Shown here: one piece after another, positions 16,314 to 49,492 of the stretch
How positions within the stretch are numbered: position 1 is the first letter of the stretch
Layout: each line of letters starts with the position of its first letter
NCBI GenBank assembly: GCA_001000675.1
Contig: LCHW01000003.1
Location: 3,873-67,872, forward strand
DNA length: 64,000 bases
Direction: 5' to 3'
Source: Candidatus Wolfebacteria bacterium GW2011_GWE2_44_13
GTDB taxonomy: Bacteria > Patescibacteriota > Minisyncoccia > UBA6257 > UBA9933
Program-made: the position numbers and the translations under genes
The notes under the pieces: model-generated
Database searches by the model: none
What the model saw: only the letters and a program-made list of their open reading frames with translations
Told to the model about the DNA's origin: nothing

Positions 16314-17864
16314 TCACTCTCCTTGTCCAGTCATCGTTGAATAATACGTGGGTATATACTGATTAAAATAATTGTTCATAAGTGGCATCATTAAGCGCTC
16401 TACGGGAGCATGGTTATCTTTTAATAAAACTCCCTTGCTGGCGACAATACTATCGTCAATAAGCAGCTTCGATAAAAATTCTCCATTTTCTCCCCGTGCT
16501 ATTTTTTCTCGTATCTCTTGTATATTTATCGCGTTATTTGTGTTTACCCCTACAAGAACAATATTTTGCGGCGCATATTCACTTTCCCCATATGCAAACA
16601 TTACATATTGGCTAAAGGTTTCTCTAAATGTTTTCCCTATACTCTCAAAAAGTCCGGCATTTTCTCCTGCTCGTGCTGAAATAAAATTTACTGCGTATAA
16701 ACCATTTTCATTTAAATGATTTTTCACCTCTTCATTAAACTCCCTTGTTGTCATATGCCATGGCACAGAAACAAACGAGTTATACGCATCAGAAAATATG
16801 AGGTCGTATTTTTTATCCGTTCGCTGTAAAAAAACTCGCCCATCGGCAACTTCAGTCTGCATTGGGTATTCTCTTAATTTAAAATAGTCTTCTGCGACCT
16901 GCTGTACTTTTGGGTCGATTTCTACGGTTGTCACATTTGCATCTTTATATGCGGAGACGATTTTTTTCGAAAGCGTGTACGATCCTCCTCCTATCACAAG
17001 AACATCTTTCATCGAACTCCCCATTGCAGAAAATATCGGGTATATATCGGGGTAAAGATTAAGCTTCTGCCCTTCCAGGCCTTCTACACTATGCGAATCG
17101 GCGTCTAAAAATAATGTTCGCACCTTGCCGTTTTTCTCGGTACTACTGTCTACTACTTGAATCTTATAATACTCACTTTCCGCAGCGAACACTTTTCCCC
17201 GCACATCGGTGAATAAATGCATTACGTATGTCACCACCCCTACGCATAAAAACAGTACTGCGATCCATGCTAATCGTTTTTTAGATGTATACAGGATAGC
17301 TGCATTTATTAATAGCACTATAGCAATTAGTAGTATCGTGGCAGAGCTCCCTACATATCCGATAAAATAAAAGCCGGCAAGAAATGTACCGACAATACTC
17401 CCTAGTGACCATGTAGCTGATATTTGTCCTGATTTAATGCCCGTTGTTTCCGTTGTTTTAAGATGAAGCTTTAAAATACTCGGGTATAGTGTTCCGAAAA
17501 GTACCGCTGGCACAAAAAATAGTACTAATGCTAATAATAATGTTGTTATCGAAATAGGTAATCCCAAAAGCGCAACTACTGGGGAAAAATACGCCCCCAA
17601 TGGTATTAAGAATGTCACTATCGAGGTTATCGCAAATAATAACGAGAGCTCTTTTCTCGATCCATATTTATCCGCATATATACCACCTCCATAGTTTCCG
17701 ATTGCCATGCCGAACAACACGACACCAATAACTGACGTCCATGTGTAAATTGATGACCCTACGTATGGCGCCATAATACGCGTCGCGATTAGCTCGATAA
17801 CCATCAAGGCAAATCCTGCGATAAAAGCCGACCCGATTAATATATTGCGATCATTTTTTATCAT
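16314..17864 (-). CDS. speE: Polyamine aminopropyltransferase (spermidine synthase) fused to an N-terminal multi-TM domain
   Basis: The C-terminal domain has VLVIGGGSYTLSKKIV ... VEIDPKV ... DLIFSDAYNS. The N-terminal 200 aa has multiple TM helices. Confidence 0.7.
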   Translation of the reverse strand: MIKNDRNILIGSAFIAGFALMVIELIATRIMAPYVGSSIYTWTSVIGVVLFGMAIGNYGGGIYADKYGSRKELSLLFAITSIVTFLIPLGAYFSPVVALLGLPISITTLLLALVLFFVPAVLFGTLYPSILKLHLKTTETTGIKSGQISATWSLGSIVGTFLAGFYFIGYVGSSATILLIAIVLLINAAILYTSKKRLAWIAVLFLCVGVVTYVMHLFTDVRGKVFAAESEYYKIQVVDSSTEKNGKVRTLFLDADSHSVEGLEGQKLNLYPDIYPIFSAMGSSMKDVLVIGGGSYTLSKKIVSAYKDANVTTVEIDPKVQQVAEDYFKLREYPMQTEVADGRVFLQRTDKKYDLIFSDAYNSFVSVPWHMTTREFNEEVKNHLNENGLYAVNFISARAGENAGLFESIGKTFRETFSQYVMFAYGESEYAPQNIVLVGVNTNNAINIQEIREKIARGENGEFLSKLLIDDSIVASKGVLLKDNHAPVERLMMPLMNNYFNQYIPTYYSTMTGQGE

Positions 17865-18735
17865 ATTTTTTCATCAAAATAACTATCTCTTCCATGGACA
17901 AATCTTGGGGTCGCTTTCGCTCATCAATGCCAATTTCGTTCAATATTTTTATTACCCGCTCTTTACCCTCTTCTTTCCCTGTGAGATTATTCGCAATTGT
18001 TTTGCGGGGTTGGGTGAATAATTTTTTTATAAACGTATAATATTTTTTACTATCTTCTTCTGTTGGCTGCACATCCAGTCGAATTGTGGCACTGTCTACC
18101 TTCGGAGGCGGGTTAAAATCCTTCTTCGGAACGCTTTCTACGATATCCGGATTTGCCCAAAATTGCACACTCGCGGCAAGCAAATTCATCTGTGGAGCTT
18201 TTGCGCAAATACGCTCGGCAACTTCTTTTTGAATTGTCATTACTACTCGTGTTGGTTTCTGTTCTAACTCTTCGATAACACGCAACAAGTACCCTGTTAT
18301 ATAATATGGAATATTCCCCGCTATTTTATAAGAGGGCATCTCTGTTTGGCGATCTACTGCGTTGCCTTCTCGTTTTCTCCCTCGAGGTAGCATTACTACA
18401 TCTCGGTCGCAAGCCTCGCCGGCGCCTTGTATCTCATCCAAACATACACGCCCCTCGCTTAATGCGTTTACTATAATAGGAAGTGTTTCCAGTGCGTTTC
18501 CTCCAATGACTGTAAATTTCTCTTTTGCAAACTTTTTTCGTAATGCAGGAATGAGCTGTGTATCACGTTCTAATGCAATAATCTGTGCGCCTGCATCTAA
18601 TAAATACTGCGTCAGCTCACCGTGCCCAGGACCAACTTCAATCACAATGTCGCGCTTGCGAATACCAAGTGCCTTTGCTACGTTTTCCAGCTTCTCGTTA
18701 TTGATTAAAAAATGTTGCCCTAATCGCTGACCCAT
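17851..18735 (-). CDS. rsmA: 16S rRNA (adenine1518/1519-N6)-dimethyltransferase
   Basis: MGQRLGQHFLINNEKL ... IEVGPGHGELT ... AGNIPYYITG. It has a central insertion of about 40 aa. Confidence 0.85.
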   Translation of the reverse strand: MGQRLGQHFLINNEKLENVAKALGIRKRDIVIEVGPGHGELTQYLLDAGAQIIALERDTQLIPALRKKFAKEKFTVIGGNALETLPIIVNALSEGRVCLDEIQGAGEACDRDVVMLPRGRKREGNAVDRQTEMPSYKIAGNIPYYITGYLLRVIEELEQKPTRVVMTIQKEVAERICAKAPQMNLLAASVQFWANPDIVESVPKKDFNPPPKVDSATIRLDVQPTEEDSKKYYTFIKKLFTQPRKTIANNLTGKEEGKERVIKILNEIGIDERKRPQDLSMEEIVILMKKYDKK

Positions 18736-18835
18736 AATACTTTTTATTATATAGTAGACAACCGAAAGAAAAAAGTTCGGCAGCTATCTATTCGGCAACC
18801 GTATTGCCGAATTGCCGAACCTTTCCTTTGCCGAT

Positions 18836-18866
18836 TAAAAAACAGGCCTTTGGGCCTGCTTTTTAA
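18836..18866 (-). terminator. Rho-independent terminator (bidirectional hairpin)
   Basis: caggcc tttg ggcctg with T-runs on both sides. It lies downstream of the helicase gene. Confidence 0.6.
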
Positions 18867-22261: not shown

Positions 22262-22446
22262 TGTTTAGCGGTTTACTAATTCAGCGAACTCCTTTGTTGC
22301 GGGCCCCTGTTGTCTCGGTCGCCGTACAATTAGCACGGCTTCCTCGCCAACTTTCCCGCGCCTCGTATTTCATCTGAATAAGTAAACCTTTGTATTAGTA
22401 CCTCCTTTGTACTTTCCGTTTTGCTATACATTTACCACAATATTTT

Positions 22447-36038: not shown

Positions 36039-36296
36039 TTATTTTTCCGTCAGTAGATCCAACTCAATGTCCAGATCGTCCATTCGTTCCTTCAATAACT
36101 TTTTTACATCGCCAACCGCTTTTTTATACACATCATCCCCTATTGTTTGTAAAAAGAAATCCAGTATTTCTCCTGCAGCGATGATGCCAATTTCTTCATC
36201 GCGCTCGTCTTGAAAAAAAGCGGTGATCGCCTTTAATGCGTCCATGCGCTTCTCTTCCGTTACAAAATCAAATTTTTGGCTTCTTTTTTTCGTCAT
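36039..36296 (-). CDS. Hypothetical small acidic protein
   Basis: 85 aa. Confidence 0.4.
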   Translation of the reverse strand: MTKKRSQKFDFVTEEKRMDALKAITAFFQDERDEEIGIIAAGEILDFFLQTIGDDVYKKAVGDVKKLLKERMDDLDIELDLLTEK

Positions 36297-36331
36297 ACTC
36301 TTCTAATGATGAAACACTCACCATTGAATGA

Positions 36332-36460
36332 GGTGCGAGACACTGGGGAATTGATGAGGAAGCTGTATTTAATAATACAGCGACCGAATCAATGGGGCCC
36401 CACCATGTAAAGTCCGCCCGAAGCGGACCACGTGGCAAGTAACGAAGCAGTTCGCAAAAC
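36332..36460 (-). ncRNA. Structured RNA-like repeat element, copy 1 (with a 38-nt insertion)
   Basis: Shares the gtgcgag..gggaat..gatgaggaagctgt..gcgaccgaat..ggggccc..gtaacgaagca..gcaaaa backbone with the copies at 40399 and 40911. Orientation is assumed from the surrounding operon. Confidence 0.45.
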
Positions 36461-36469
36461 CTATGCGTT

Positions 36470-37699
36470 TTATCTTGTTTTGAATGCTTCTTTTGGAGAA
36501 AGTGTCGTCGACCTATGCGCTGGCCAGAACCCTGCAATTAATCCAATCATAGAGGACAAGATGAGTGTCGTAATAACGAACCATATTGGGGTAATAAACA
36601 ATCGTATAGGGGCGCCTCCAAGGCGTTGCGCGAGAATGCTTAAAATAAAGTTTACCGTCTCTCCCGCCGCAATACCCAACGCAACACCCCCTAGCCCGCC
36701 TGATAATCCCATCAATAATGATTCCATGAGGAATAGGTTTTTAACATCACGGTCTGTAGCACCTAATGACTTCATAATACCCACCTCGTAAATACGTTCC
36801 AAAAATCCTACGATCATTGTGTTGAACATACCGATTGCCGATACGATAAGTGCAGCAATACCAAAAACACCAAGAATAGTTGTAATGATGTTCATAACCT
36901 TCTTTGCTTGGTTCACAAGGTCCACGCGAGCTGAAATAATAAACCCTTGTTCAATCAGCTCATCGCGCAATGATTCAACTGCATCAATGTTTGTTGCCTT
37001 TAACAACACTTCCTTGTAGAACGGTGGCTTTTGATCAACCGCAGAAGCAGACACAAAAGCAAACGGGGCTTGCGTATCATCGTTAATAATTCCAACGAGC
37101 TTGATTGGTTCTCTTAAAATTACCTCCTGTCCAGCTCCTTCTTGATCATTCAACCCTTGGTAGGTCAGCTTTAGCCCAAGCTCTTTCCCTATTGAGCTTT
37201 GATCGGGCACAAGGTTGAGCAGCTTTGCGGCTTGACTCGAAAGCACAATCCCCTTTTCATCTTCCTTAAATGCTTTCCCCGTGTCCGGCATAAGTCCAGA
37301 CAATCGAAAATAACTTGGGCTGATTATCTTTGCCACAACCAACCCAGTAGCTCCTTCGATTTTAATTTCTGCAGGAAACTCTGCCATCGTACTAACCTCG
37401 CCTACGTTTGGCATTTTAGTAATCGATTCGATTGTTGCCGGGTTAATATTCAATTCGCTCTCCGCTGGATAGCTTACCCCGAGCGCCATAAGAGAATCCT
37501 CTGTTGTTACCAATTTACCAATCAAAATAAATTGCAAACCATATCCCATAGAAATCAAAAACATAACCGTTCCGATGCCCACAGACATACCCATGATCGT
37601 CAAAAAAGTTCGAACTGGTTTCGTTTTAAATACTCGGAATGATAGCCGAAAAAGATCTGTTACCGATAAATGATTTCTTGTTTCTTCCATATGCTCCAA
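36470..37699 (-). CDS. ABC transporter permease (MacB/LolE-like, FtsX domain)
   Basis: 409 aa. N-terminal TM, periplasmic MacB-like domain, three C-terminal TMs. Confidence 0.75.
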   Translation of the reverse strand: MEHMEETRNHLSVTDLFRLSFRVFKTKPVRTFLTIMGMSVGIGTVMFLISMGYGLQFILIGKLVTTEDSLMALGVSYPAESELNINPATIESITKMPNVGEVSTMAEFPAEIKIEGATGLVVAKIISPSYFRLSGLMPDTGKAFKEDEKGIVLSSQAAKLLNLVPDQSSIGKELGLKLTYQGLNDQEGAGQEVILREPIKLVGIINDDTQAPFAFVSASAVDQKPPFYKEVLLKATNIDAVESLRDELIEQGFIISARVDLVNQAKKVMNIITTILGVFGIAALIVSAIGMFNTMIVGFLERIYEVGIMKSLGATDRDVKNLFLMESLLMGLSGGLGGVALGIAAGETVNFILSILAQRLGGAPIRLFITPIWFVITTLILSSMIGLIAGFWPAHRSTTLSPKEAFKTR

Positions 37700-40273: not shown

Positions 40274-40398
40274 CTAATGGCTAGTTAGCCCCACTTCCAG
40301 AAGTCGTCAAAAAGGTTCCAACATCGTCCCATAGCGCCGACTAAAAAACAACCCACGCAAGTGGGTTGTTTCTTGTATTAAATTAATATATTCAGATA

Positions 40399-40486
40399 AA
40401 GTGCGAGGCACGGGAATATCAATGAGGAAGCTGTGCAGAAGTACTGCGACCGAATTGATAGGGGCCCGTAACGATGCAATTTGCTG
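40399..40486 (-). ncRNA. Structured RNA-like repeat element, copy 2 (downstream of rplL)
   Basis: Conserved backbone with stem tatcaat/attgata (compensatory relative to copy 3). Confidence 0.45.
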
Positions 40487-40504
40487 AATATATTATATTT
40501 AAAT

Positions 40505-40870
40505 TTATTTCAACTCTACTACTGCACCTACATCTTCCAACTGCTTCTTCAAGGCTTCGGCATCTTCCTTCTTCATGCCTTCCTTTACTGCCTTTGGAGC
40601 TGCGTCTACGATATCCTTTGCTTCCTTAAGACCCAATCCGGTTACTTCTTTTACAACCTTGATTACGTTGATCTTCTGGTCGCCTGCTTCTTTCAAGATA
40701 ACGTCATATGCAGACTTCTCTTCCTCTTCAGCTGCTCCTGCTGCTGCGCCTGAACCTGCTGGCATTGATGCTGATACGCCAAACTTTTCTTCCAATACTT
40801 TGACCAATTCCGCCAATTCAACAACGGTCATTGACTCAATCTTTTCGATGATGTCTTTAAACTTTTCCAT
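40505..40870 (-). CDS. rplL: 50S ribosomal protein L7/L12
   Basis: 121 aa with the classic L12 N-terminal and C-terminal domain sequence. Confidence 0.92.
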
Positions 40871-40910
40871 AAAAATAAATTAATTAATTATTCTACCCCT
40901 AAGATGCACA

Positions 40911-41000
40911 TATTTTAATGGAGTGCGAGGCATGGGAATATCGATGAGGAAGCTGTACAAGAAGTACTGCGCCGAATCGATAGGGGCCCATAACGAAGCA
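40911..41000 (-). ncRNA. Structured RNA-like repeat element, copy 3 (rplJ-rplL intergenic)
   Basis: Stem tatcgat/atcgata, inner hairpin gtac aagaa gtac, conserved ggggccc and gtaacgaagca. Confidence 0.45.
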
Positions 41001-41019
41001 ATCCGCAAAATATACAATC

Positions 41020-41520
41020 TTACTTCGAACCCATTTCTGCTTTTTGACTAAGTACATACATAAACATACGAATCGGTGCGGCAAGCATACCAACGACCTG
41101 TCCAATAAGAACTTCTCGTGATGGCAACTGACCAATCTGCTTCGTTGTTTTTGCATCCATGAATACCTTCCCTTCCATGTCATATGCTCCATAGATATCA
41201 CATCCTTTCTTTTCCTTCGATTTGAAGAATTTATAGACAGGGGCTGCAACATCGGAGATATTTGCTGAAGAAAAGATTGTTGCGAGCTGTGTTTCGAATT
41301 GTTCTGGGTTGATATCAACTCCTGCCTTTTCGAGAGACACGCGCAACAGCTTTTTGTTCACAACTCGTACGGTTGATCCGAGGGGACGCAAGGTCTTTTT
41401 CAATTCCTTGATATCTTCCACGCCAGTTCCAGAGAAGTTGATGAACATTAGATTCTTGCTATTCTTTAGCAATTCTTGCGTTTCCGCAATGATTACTTTC
41501 TTTTGATCTCTTGTTTTCAT
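41020..41520 (-). CDS. rplJ: 50S ribosomal protein L10
   Basis: 166 aa, L10 family. Confidence 0.9.
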   Translation of the reverse strand: MKTRDQKKVIIAETQELLKNSKNLMFINFSGTGVEDIKELKKTLRPLGSTVRVVNKKLLRVSLEKAGVDINPEQFETQLATIFSSANISDVAAPVYKFFKSKEKKGCDIYGAYDMEGKVFMDAKTTKQIGQLPSREVLIGQVVGMLAAPIRMFMYVLSQKAEMGSK

Positions 41521-49031: not shown

Positions 49032-49049
49032 ATATATTTTAAAATCTGG

Positions 49050-49122
49050 AGCCAGTGGCCGGAATTGAACCGGCGACCTACGCGTTACGAGTGCGTTGCT
49101 CTACCAACTGAGCTACACTGGC
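49050..49122 (-). tRNA. tRNA-Thr (anticodon CGT)
   Basis: Acceptor gccagtg/cactggc, anticodon loop ctcgtaa, T-loop ttcaatt. Confidence 0.85.
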
Positions 49123-49198: not shown

Positions 49199-49315
49199 TC
49201 GTCGGAGCCGTTGTATATGAACGGCTCCGACATCACGGCACGTTGCACGCTCTTCGTCCGTCGGCTGACGAACGAATCCCTAGCAACGCCGAGTGTCCAA
49301 CTGAGCTACACTGGC
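49199..49315 (-). pseudogene. Truncated duplicate of the tRNA-Thr 5' end (49297-49315) plus perfect 12-bp hairpin (49199-49231)
   Basis: ccaactgagctacactggc repeats the 5' acceptor/D region of tRNA-Thr with no T-arm. The hairpin is gtcggagccgtt gtatatga aacggctccgac. Confidence 0.5.
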
Positions 49316-49492
49316 ATACAAAGGGCTCCCCCTCACAGGGAGCCATTCGAATCGCAAGATTTTTCCATGGCGCATATATTTGGCGAACTACTTCGTTGCC
49401 ATCTCCGTTTGTTTCCGCGAAGGAGATTTCTCCATCTTAGTCACAATCCTCGCTGGCGCCTCGTATTTCATCCAAATATATGTGTCATGACC

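Follow-up and report, generated by a model that had tools for sequence, protein, structure and literature searches.

A family of folded repeats of about 126 nt in Wolfebacteria-like genomes, probably non-autonomous and mobile

Introduction

What is the folded repeat that lies between an FtsX/MacB-type permease gene and a small open reading frame (ORF) in Candidatus Wolfebacteria bacterium GW2011_GWE2_44_13? The window analysed here is the whole 64,000-nt stretch of contig LCHW01000003.1 in which it occurs. A sequence-only reading of this DNA had described, at 36332-36460, a structured RNA-like element with compensatory stems, shared with two copies flanking rplL and carrying an additional hairpin of its own. 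The observation proved to be real, and it had been understated. The element belongs to a family of units of about 126 nt, which are probably non-autonomous mobile repeats of Wolfebacteria-like members of the Candidate Phyla Radiation (CPR; Parcubacteria group), constrained as a single-stranded fold. CPR genomes are tiny and streamlined, and are not generally seen as repeat-rich. [quoted passage not shown]

Copies in the window and in related genomes

The flagged element, copy 1, lies where it had been placed, between the permease gene (36470-37699, minus strand) and a DUF2164 ORF (36039-36296, minus strand), but its conserved body begins 4 nt sooner, with ATGA at 36328, and ends at 36455. This plus-strand, type A core runs from AUGAG to UUCGC and is 128 nt long, including a 36-nt insertion. 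The backbone GTGCGAG..GGGAA..stem..GAGGAAGCTGT..hairpin..GCGACCGAA..stem'..GGGGCCC..AACGAAGCA..GC, read directly from the sequence, is indeed common to copy 1 and the two copies beside rplL. The pattern GAGGAAGC-N(8-30)-CCGAA occurs three times where 0.05 occurrences would be expected by chance, and these three copies fold much better than shuffled sequence, with z = -3.9 to -5.2. Copy 1 scores E=3e-22 in nhmmer and 58.9 bits (E=5e-15) with the R1 covariance model, a score depressed by the insertion; E-values for the copies from nhmmer and the covariance model run from 1e-13 to 1e-27; those based on the shortened calibration are rough.

There are six copies in the window, three on each strand, so that three had been overlooked. 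Copies 2 and 3 are the type A, plus-strand copies beside rplL. Copy 2 (40378..40502, core 40396-40484, arms of about 18 nt with duplex z = -5.2, 96.4 bits) occupies the interval between the rplL stop codon and a bidirectional terminator at 40346-40371, and is antisense to rplL (40505-40870, minus strand). Copy 3 (40900..41022 with arms, core 40918-41006, 95.2 bits) lies in the rplJ-rplL spacer, antisense to both genes. The other three are on the minus strand. Copy 4, found by a profile of the first three copies, is of type A (22270..22388, core 22284-22373, arms of 14-15 nt, nhmmer E=3e-13, 98.9 bits) and lies in sense orientation in the spacer that separates a DksA/TraR zinc-finger gene from a ComM-like gene, its end 22 nt short of the start codon of the latter. 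Copies 5 and 6 are of a second type, B, and were found by an unfiltered covariance model built on 14 distinct copies, that is, from the same family that it later retrieved. Copy 5 (49365..49490, core 49383-49471, 48.9 bits, E=5.5e-12, arms z = -6.5) begins 21 nt past the seryl-tRNA synthetase (SerRS) stop codon, in sense orientation, upstream of a tRNA-Thr gene. Copy 6 (18330..18456, core 18349-18437, 19-nt arms, 44.6 bits, E=1e-10) is in-frame within rsmA/ksgA.

The searches also yielded copies in the contigs of relatives; a covariance-model search had been proposed in the sequence-only reading. About 25 further distinct copies were identified in Wolfebacteria and Parcubacteria contigs. Relatives were sought by one pattern scan each of a public genome collection and a public metagenome collection, neither of which contains the window's own genome. 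Among the 81 pattern hits the true relatives are on CPR contigs only, and many of the other hits are chance matches in high-GC genomes. The named sources are Candidatus Wolfebacteria GW2011_GWB1_47_1, Wolfebacteria RIFOXYD12_FULL_48_21 and one Parcubacteria metagenome-assembled genome; the metagenome collection contributed about a dozen contigs of 38-61% GC. Every syntenic locus fetched later held further copies. The L10 protein of the window is 83% identical to a Candidatus Wolfebacteria L10. Since the sample consists of genome fragments rather than whole genomes, copy counts refer to the set of loci.

Directly downstream of a strong copy (2176-2263) on the Parcubacteria contig L014, a weak second match of 24.5 bits at 2304-2391 may be a tandem or degenerate copy.

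A hairpin of conserved loops and variable stems

For analysis of the fold, copies were aligned with MAFFT on sequence alone, with the copy 1 insertion removed and the ends trimmed by hand; the structure was likewise derived by hand. In the 14-copy alignment, 92.1% of cells are paired, compared with 23-46% in slid controls, 17 of the 28 pairs have changed on both sides, and none of 500 shuffles reaches the observed value. With 20 copies the corresponding figures are 91.4%, 22-47% and 21 of 28, again with no shuffle among 500 attaining the observed value. RNAalifold independently gives essentially the same fold. The earlier description of a repeated, structured element with compensatory stems is thus fully supported.

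On the element strand, the sequence AUGAA-RYGC-GAGGC...GAGGAAGC...GACCGA...GGGGCCC...AAC...UUCGC forms one long irregular hairpin, with conserved purine-rich loops and sequence-variable stems in each copy. At its base is the AUGAA/UUCGC helix, the GAA/UUC part of which is also found as AAA/UUU, GGA/UCC and GGG/CCC. A purine-purine mismatch separates this helix from the 3-bp P1, for which UGC/GCA, CGC/GCG, CGU/ACG and UAC/GUA are all found. Inside P1, a loop places GAGGC opposite AACRNA; there follow P2 (RYGGG/CCCRY), a loop with AA opposite GGGG, and P3, whose sequence is wholly variable between copies. Beyond P3, GAGGAA faces GACCGA in a loop whose inner GG and CC form pairs, one of which, G31-C58, becomes A-U in locus L096. 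The apex is the P4 hairpin (GCYGU...). The AUGAA/UUCGC helix, P1 and the GAGGC/AACRNA loop together make up a basal scaffold, on which the apical module is exchangeable and of type A or type B.

In copy 1 the apical module spans 36350..36393 on the plus strand and is supported by the pair counts from both alignments. It comprises P3 (ATTGAT/ATCAAT, 36350-36355 and 36388-36393), whose pairs are changed on both sides in 2-8 of 20 copies, the GAGGAA/GACCGA internal loop (36356-36361 and 36382-36387), whose GG and CC pair, and P4 (36362-36381). The stem covariation first noticed here is real: as their P3, copies 1, 2 and 3 have ATTGAT/ATCAAT, ATCAAT/ATTGAT and ATCGAT/ATCGAT, respectively. The extra hairpin, GTCCGC-CCGAA-GCGGAC, is present at 36412-36428 and there is no second one in the window; by alignment, the insertion that carries it measures 36 nt (36403..36438) and not the 38 nt first given. 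Folding and alignment place it within the 3' strand of P2, where it converts the fold to a three-way junction, and it is missing from the orthologous copies in L094 (15425-15514) and L096 (8078-8167).

Around every copy there is a variable outer stem, P0, which the sequence-only reading had overlooked. Its sequence is different in every copy, and still its arms are complementary. The arms are mostly about 18-19 nt each, bringing the unit to about 126 nt. Compared with shuffled flanks, the flank duplexes have z = -3 to -12.5 in almost all copies, and the energies of the hairpins lie between -40 and -87 kcal/mol. Copy 1 has retained its 3' arm (AAAACCTATGCGTT..., 36456..36474), the 5' partner of which (36308-36327) has decayed in the window genome, and its arm duplex has z = -1.2 compared with -3 to -12 in most other copies; the homologous arm of this site is still paired in L094 and L096. 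There is no conserved terminal inverted repeat: the arms are unrelated between loci, as in AATATATTCAG, GGTTTACTTATTCAG and GTAAAACACATGAAGTTGG, and the only recurring part is a semi-conserved AUUYRG/CYRAAU of about 6 bp next to the core.

Type B copies share the basal scaffold of type A (AUGAR-AUAC-RAGGCGC ... GGCAAC-GNAG-UAG-NUCGC) and have another apical domain. An inverted type A apex is ruled out, the type B apex not being its reverse complement; it looks more like a type A apex that has lost P4 and acquired a new hairpin. A 33-bit match on the minus strand of L070 (10310-10398) has the ends of the basal scaffold (ATGAAC... ...CAACAATGGAGTTCGC) and a different apical sequence, which suggests a third type of apex. 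The indels between copies are not multiples of three and break the reading frame, which rules out a small coding gene.

One strand probably constrained, in either orientation to genes

The alignment contains 13 G.U pairs and 6 A.C mismatches, columns 1-92 and 2-91 being excluded. The U2.G91 wobble was dropped as evidence of strand, since the adjacent A1.C92 mismatch is the mirror-image wobble on the other strand. Folding energy favours the strand as first written in 25 of 28 cores, with a mean difference of 4.6 kcal/mol, and in 27 of 28 copies taken with their arms, with a mean difference of 7.6 kcal/mol. The extra 3 kcal/mol come from the loop-free arms and are independent of any bonus for purine loops. 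With moderate confidence, we conclude that the 'GAGG' strand is the constrained one.

The copies occur in both orientations relative to neighbouring genes, and most are antisense to the gene that they abut. Most intergenic copies are antisense to a neighbour from whose stop codon the core's 3' end is separated by 13-21 nt; other copies are in sense orientation, either just upstream of a start codon or just past a stop codon. By inspection, no promoter motif is shared upstream of the copies, where the sequence is that of the variable arm. The mixed, mostly antisense orientation and the want of a conserved promoter leave the RNA nature of the element unsupported. Orientation is not tied to the direction of replication either: the skew in GC stays negative throughout the window, yet the copies divide three and three between the strands.

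Turnover at orthologous sites

Filled and empty orthologous sites were found at four loci. The rplJ-rplL spacer is 149 nt long in the window and 153 nt in L094, where it is filled, and 25, 19 and 82 nt in L096, L097 and L098, where it is empty. The site after rplL follows the same pattern, with a copy in the window and in L094 and none in L096, L097 or L098; in L096 and L097 only about 10 nt, without a palindrome at the point of insertion, separate the stop codon from the terminator. Filled and empty sites differ in size by about 125 nt, which is the core with both arms. Since the empty sites lack a palindrome and the size difference is about 125 nt, the arms either arrive with the element or arise at insertion. 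Their derivation from a pre-existing, invaded terminator hairpin is ruled out at the post-rplL site, where the empty sites have no palindrome and the terminator stands intact beside the filled copy. These comparisons show that the unit, arms included, is gained or lost at orthologous sites. In L094, the region after SerRS that corresponds to the site of copy 5 holds no copy.

The terminator itself, at 40346-40371, is a perfect bidirectional terminator-like hairpin (AAACAACCCAC GCAA GTGGGTTGTTT), preceded by an A-tract and followed by a T-tract. The convergent GNAT and rplL genes have it in common, and it is kept in L096, L097 and L094, adjoining the copy 2 site.

The FtsX-DUF2164 site holds copy 1 in the window and has a copy in L094 and L096 as well; among the three, P3 and the arms are wholly different and yet paired, with P3 reading AUUGAU, ACGGCAC or AUCGAC, and the loops are near-identical. 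The DksA-ComM spacer of copy 4 is more varied: it holds type A in sense orientation in the window and L093, type A inverted in L091, and type B in L086, and the versions in L093, L091 and L086 stand on recognisably homologous arms. Because these versions differ on homologous arms, the core can be inverted and exchanged in place, and from copy to copy the apical module is swapped or overwritten. At loci that are unrelated and belong to different genomes (L023, L028, L047, together with copies 2 and 3 of the window), apical modules share 92-93% identity, while the true orthologues copy 3 and L094a share 93% of the base and only 70% of the apex. This is the pattern of a 'master-like' apex that spreads and overwrites older copies. 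Overall, pairing and loop sequences are kept far better than neutral sites.

Insertion appears to proceed without target-site duplication: for 20 of 24 copies, shuffled flanks give direct repeats at least as good as the longest real one. The exceptions are the ksgA orthologues L084 and L089, whose repeat contains the palindrome GGCGCC, L047, where the repeat is itself a palindrome, and the locus-specific case of L023.

At L023 (4961-5100), a 15-nt direct repeat (CATGTGTTTTACTTT) flanks the element in addition to its 19-bp inverted arms, an arrangement seen at no other locus. An alternative pairing arises from a hairpin between the upstream repeat and the 5' arm. Together with an 'EGR' match at ksgA, where the boundaries are ambiguous by about 4 codons, L023 hints at an inverted duplication of the target flank at insertion, which is suggested here as a possibility.

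An in-frame copy in rsmA/ksgA

Copy 6 lies in the essential minus-strand gene rsmA/ksgA (17851..18735), which encodes the 294-residue 16S rRNA dimethyladenosine transferase; PF00398 is present in all the homologs. The copy would encode approximately EGRVCLDEIQGAGEACDRDVVMLPRGRKREGNAVDRQTEMP. The four closest RsmA/KsgA homologs, at 59-72% identity, have the same insert of about 37 residues at the same position, and the copy is found in five species in all (the window, L084, L086, L088 and L089). The site is empty in L091, L092 and L093, where the DNA across it reads ...E-Q-E-G-R/K-S/P-Y..., and relatives of 253-261 residues at 60-65% identity have nothing at this position.

The net insert is 111-114 nt, occupies the only stop-free frame of the three and keeps the frame through a 3-nt indel in L086; as an open, stop-free stretch it would be translated. 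In the AlphaFold model of KsgA the predicted local distance difference test score is 81-97 on both sides of the insert and below 50 for residues 103-130, inside it, with no secondary structure, which indicates that the insert is probably a disordered surface loop. Between species, identity at third codon positions is 0.68-0.90 in the insert core compared with 0.39-0.60 in the rest of the gene; the changed codons are synonymous in 28 cases and non-synonymous in 81 in the insert core, and 913 and 729, respectively, elsewhere. To judge from these codon comparisons, the insert is conserved as nucleic acid and not as protein. Four of the five species retain P0 within the coding part, where its differences are compensatory. 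To account for such a pattern, either selection must act on the fold at this locus or other copies must convert it repeatedly. The turnover described above shows conversion to take place; however, the ksgA orthologues are more alike than the window's two type B copies are to each other, and this copy may have been domesticated for a host function.

Other insertions are seen in the same gene. A second, unrelated in-frame insert lies about 25 codons upstream in L089 (4715-4850) and also in P0004/L088; it encodes ...IPVKTGISSDAIDSRLRGNDIKREGNN..., is made up of two short GC-rich hairpins, UUCCUGUGAAAACAGGAA and UUCCCGCCUCCGCGGGAA, and is another repeat family tolerated in ksgA. At the protein level, the homolog P0012 (61% identity) has a different GC-rich insert of about 44 residues, CHPGEPCPEPAEWVAEGSVVNETDSSATPPAGGVARNDKHCKIN, at the exact position of the element. 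The KsgA surface loop seems to be a recurrent landing or tolerance site. On the minus strand between a UvrD-like gene and ksgA (18780-18860), a run of GCCGAA/TTCGGC-type inverted repeats (ttcggcaattcggcaatacggttgccgaatagatagctgccgaac) is followed by a T-tract; a similar motif occupies the same place in L089 (4306-4404), and may be a separate conserved hairpin or terminator.

Comparison with known repeats and folds

The Rfam scan proposed at the outset gave no family match. At the gathering score, Rfam 15 finds only tRNAs in the window, and at E<=10 the three loci first noted give only noise (small nucleolar RNA, microRNA and small-RNA models at 9-24 bits, against cut-offs of 43-67); the models covered include hammerhead, twister, pistol, hatchet, hepatitis delta virus-like, group I and II introns, signal recognition particle RNA, 6S and ribosomal protein leaders. 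Full-text literature searches gave no description of the element, which does not prove it undescribed. No genuine copy emerged from pattern scans of viral contigs, nor any match from BLAST searches of phage and plasmid collections, and a phage or plasmid origin is rejected on this absence from viral contigs, annotated phages and plasmids.

RPE families are described by a conserved encoded peptide, and MITEs are defined by target-site duplications and by terminal inverted repeats common to all copies and to a parent insertion sequence. RPEs are hairpin-forming repeats of about 100-150 bp that lie between genes and, inserted in-frame at apparently fold-compatible positions, within housekeeping genes of small reduced genomes; Correia elements can invert, and MITE hairpins in transcripts can be cleaved by RNase III (PMC10969869). 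The present element is likewise a hairpin repeat of about 100-150 bp in a reduced genome, found between genes and in-frame in a housekeeping gene, and the ksgA insert is an in-frame palindromic insertion in five species. Unlike RPEs, its host belongs to the CPR and not to the Alphaproteobacteria/Rickettsiales, and here the peptide is free and the nucleotides are conserved (81 non-synonymous and 28 synonymous changes). Variable arms, a modular apex of types A and B and strand-specific conserved loops also go beyond RPEs, from which the element is set apart by descriptions rather than by direct sequence comparison.

The family resembles MITEs (Correia/NEMIS, ERIC, Chunjie) in being short, non-coding, multi-copy and dispersed, in its insertion polymorphism and, as for Correia, in its in-place inversion, but lacks the shared terminal inverted repeats and target-site duplications of a classical MITE. 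Identification as a known repeat family, repetitive extragenic palindromic (REP) or MITE, which the earlier reading had named as an outcome that would refute it, holds in kind, in that the element behaves as a mobile repeat, but not by name. With REPs and bacterial interspersed mosaic elements (BIMEs), which are associated with REP-associated tyrosine transposases (RAYTs), and with IS200/IS605, it would share recognition of a folded single strand, and it shares the absence of target-site duplication and the strand-specific conservation of structure. This makes REP/RAYT or IS200/IS605-type systems what we infer to be the nearest mechanistic analogy. REPs are simple hairpins of 20-40 bp with a GTAG or CGTC tag (PMC3733652). 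The present element is about 126 nt long and has three internal loops, no such tag at the foot of its stem, and no RAYT or TnpA in the window.

Several known folds can be set aside. Integron attC sites have R''(RYYYAAC)/R'(GTTRRRY) boxes paired at the foot of the hairpin, and lie in cassette arrays; here the conserved AAC faces GAGGC and not GTT, and the neighbours are the core genes rplJ, rplL, ksgA and serS, which rules attC out. In a kink-turn, a canonical stem is joined to a non-canonical one through a 3-nt bulge and, after it, tandem G.A/A.G pairs. As read from the alignment, GAGGAA/GACCGA is symmetric (G.A, A.G, G-C, G-C, A.A, A.G) and without a bulge, and does not fit a kink-turn.

Probable mobility and its alternatives

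We favour the interpretation of the family as non-autonomous mobile repeats. Because the stems vary as long as they pair, the asymmetric loops are strictly conserved and stability is strand-specific, a folded single strand is likely to be what is recognised. The unit would be propagated through, or recognised as, such a fold, of single-stranded DNA or RNA, with the conserved loops as a contact surface and stems that need only pair, and the responsible enzyme would be encoded elsewhere in the genome. Where a hairpin is co-transcribed, it probably has an incidental effect on the 3' ends or the processing of RNA, which would not be the reason for its existence. The arms might originate by inverted copying of the flank at insertion, or by later hairpin-templated correction.

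A number of points weigh against this interpretation. The roughly 50 ORFs of the window, which are housekeeping or type-IV-secretion-like genes, include no transposase, integrase, reverse transcriptase or HUH/RAYT domain, and no longer element with the same ends occurs in about 1 Mb of fetched loci. How each copy gets its own complementary arms of 18-19 nt has no explanation, and the classical MITE mechanism is inapplicable because there is neither target-site duplication nor a conserved terminal inverted repeat. The strong conservation of orthologues, above all in ksgA, is not predicted for decaying selfish DNA, and therefore calls for ongoing gene conversion or a host-level function. Moreover, the call of strand leans partly on energy parameters that favour purine-rich loops, and the data come from partial genomes only, with genome-wide copy number and orientation bias outside their range. 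Our confidence is not higher mainly because a host function as a non-coding RNA retains some likelihood.

A bolder version of the mobile interpretation is more tentative. It proposes a new class of structure-defined mobile element, in which the folded core of about 90 nt, as single-stranded DNA or RNA, would be the active entity and would recruit a recombinase or be catalytic. It would insert with a de novo 18-19-bp stem and no target-site duplication, its apex would home into and overwrite older copies, and some copies would perhaps be domesticated. This we regard as a minority possibility.

The alternative that survives best would make the repeats structured non-coding RNAs that serve the host, as small RNA genes or as cis-acting modules, with loops that bind protein or RNA and with copy changes that represent gene-family turnover. 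Conserved loops with stems that covary to saturation are a hallmark of functional RNAs; the FtsX-DUF2164 orthologues hold their loops while P3 changes, the asymmetry in folding is strand-specific, and the ksgA copy is conserved at the nucleotide level. Such genes would nevertheless not be expected in mixed orientation and mostly antisense to the abutted gene, behind a variable arm with no shared promoter motif by inspection, in sense, inverted and type-swapped versions at one site, in an open frame within a coding region, and without a tie to any gene class. We consider this explanation unlikely.

Quite unlikely is a role of the hairpin as RNA punctuation after stop codons, whether as terminator, 3'-end stabiliser or RNase III site in the manner of SPRITE or Correia repeats. 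Like SPRITE and other terminator-like repeats, the element is a long hairpin found right after stop codons, with a T-tract in some copies. The outer stem of most intergenic copies starts a few nucleotides from a stop codon, the core being 13-21 nt away, but where spacers are only 19-25 nt such proximity is to be expected. The hairpin energies quoted above would suit this role, which has precedents (PMC10969869), and in 7 of 28 copies at least 5 of the 8 nt that follow the stem are T, compared with a 5% background, although a consensus terminator scan misses them, their loops being too long. Three quarters of the copies lack a T-tract, however, and only one in 28 has an A-tract; some of the T-tracts are the reverse complement of the lysine and stop codons of the abutting gene, and a true terminator already stands beside copy 2. 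Copy 3 is within the rplJ-rplL operon and copy 6 within a gene, where termination or cleavage would be harmful, and the conserved asymmetric loops have no role in termination and are not needed by a plain terminator. Some copies may act in termination or processing, which would leave the conserved loops and the copies within an operon and within a gene unexplained.

A DNA-level site, that is, a cruciform or double-stranded motif for a nucleoid, recombination or replication protein in the way that REP/BIME sequences serve gyrase or integration host factor, would account for the toleration of any orientation to genes and for conservation even within a gene, and the inversion and exchange imply frequent DNA recombination at the repeats. 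Wobble pairs and stability specific to one strand are unexpected of a double-stranded site, and with stems that vary freely a sequence-specific binder of double-stranded DNA could read only the loops. The orientation of copies, independent of the direction of replication, also speaks against such a site, which we regard as improbable.

Lastly, a self-cleaving ribozyme or small intron-like element removed from transcripts is very unlikely: its compact fold and conserved loops, the nucleic-acid conservation of the ksgA insert and a superficial GAUGAG...CGAA likeness to the hammerhead, in which an invariant CUGAUGA...GAAA core joins three helices, are outweighed by the lack of any ribozyme or intron match in Rfam even at E<=10, by flanks that pair with each other and leave no separate helices I and III, by supposed core bases that vary among copies 1-4 (UUGAUGA, UCAAUGA, UCGAUGA, UGGCGA; CUGAUGA-like bases UUGAU, UCAAU, UCGAU, UGGC) and covary as P3, which rules out a hammerhead, and by a ksgA insert that is a multiple of three in the sole stop-free frame, with a frame-keeping 3-nt indel in L086, all of which would be needless if it were spliced.

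If the family is indeed mobile, it would be a second, independent RPE-like case, from a distant phylum, of selfish DNA within genes of reduced genomes; it would explain some of the extra segments in CPR proteins and offer a marker for strain- and lineage-level typing in metagenomes. Variable complementary arms, absence of target-site duplication, asymmetric loops and strand specificity point to an uncharacterised recombination or processing activity that reads structure. In annotation, such hairpins will be mistaken for small ORFs, for terminators or for candidate riboswitches.

Additional observations

Near copy 5, an exact duplicate of the opening 19 nt of the tRNA-Thr(CGT) gene (GCCAGTGTAGCTCAGTTGG) lies about 190 nt upstream of the gene proper (49296-49314, minus strand, and 49047-49122), and a GC-rich, hairpin-bearing stretch of about 175 nt lies between the duplicate and the gene. 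The arrangement resembles the outcome of an insertion into the gene's 5' half, or of a partial duplication of that half. Finally, the near-identical loci L094 (984-2279) and L095 (985-2280) differ in that the seryl-tRNA synthetase is present as two ORFs of 303 and 116 residues in the former and as one of 431 residues in the latter, which is a frameshift or assembly difference.

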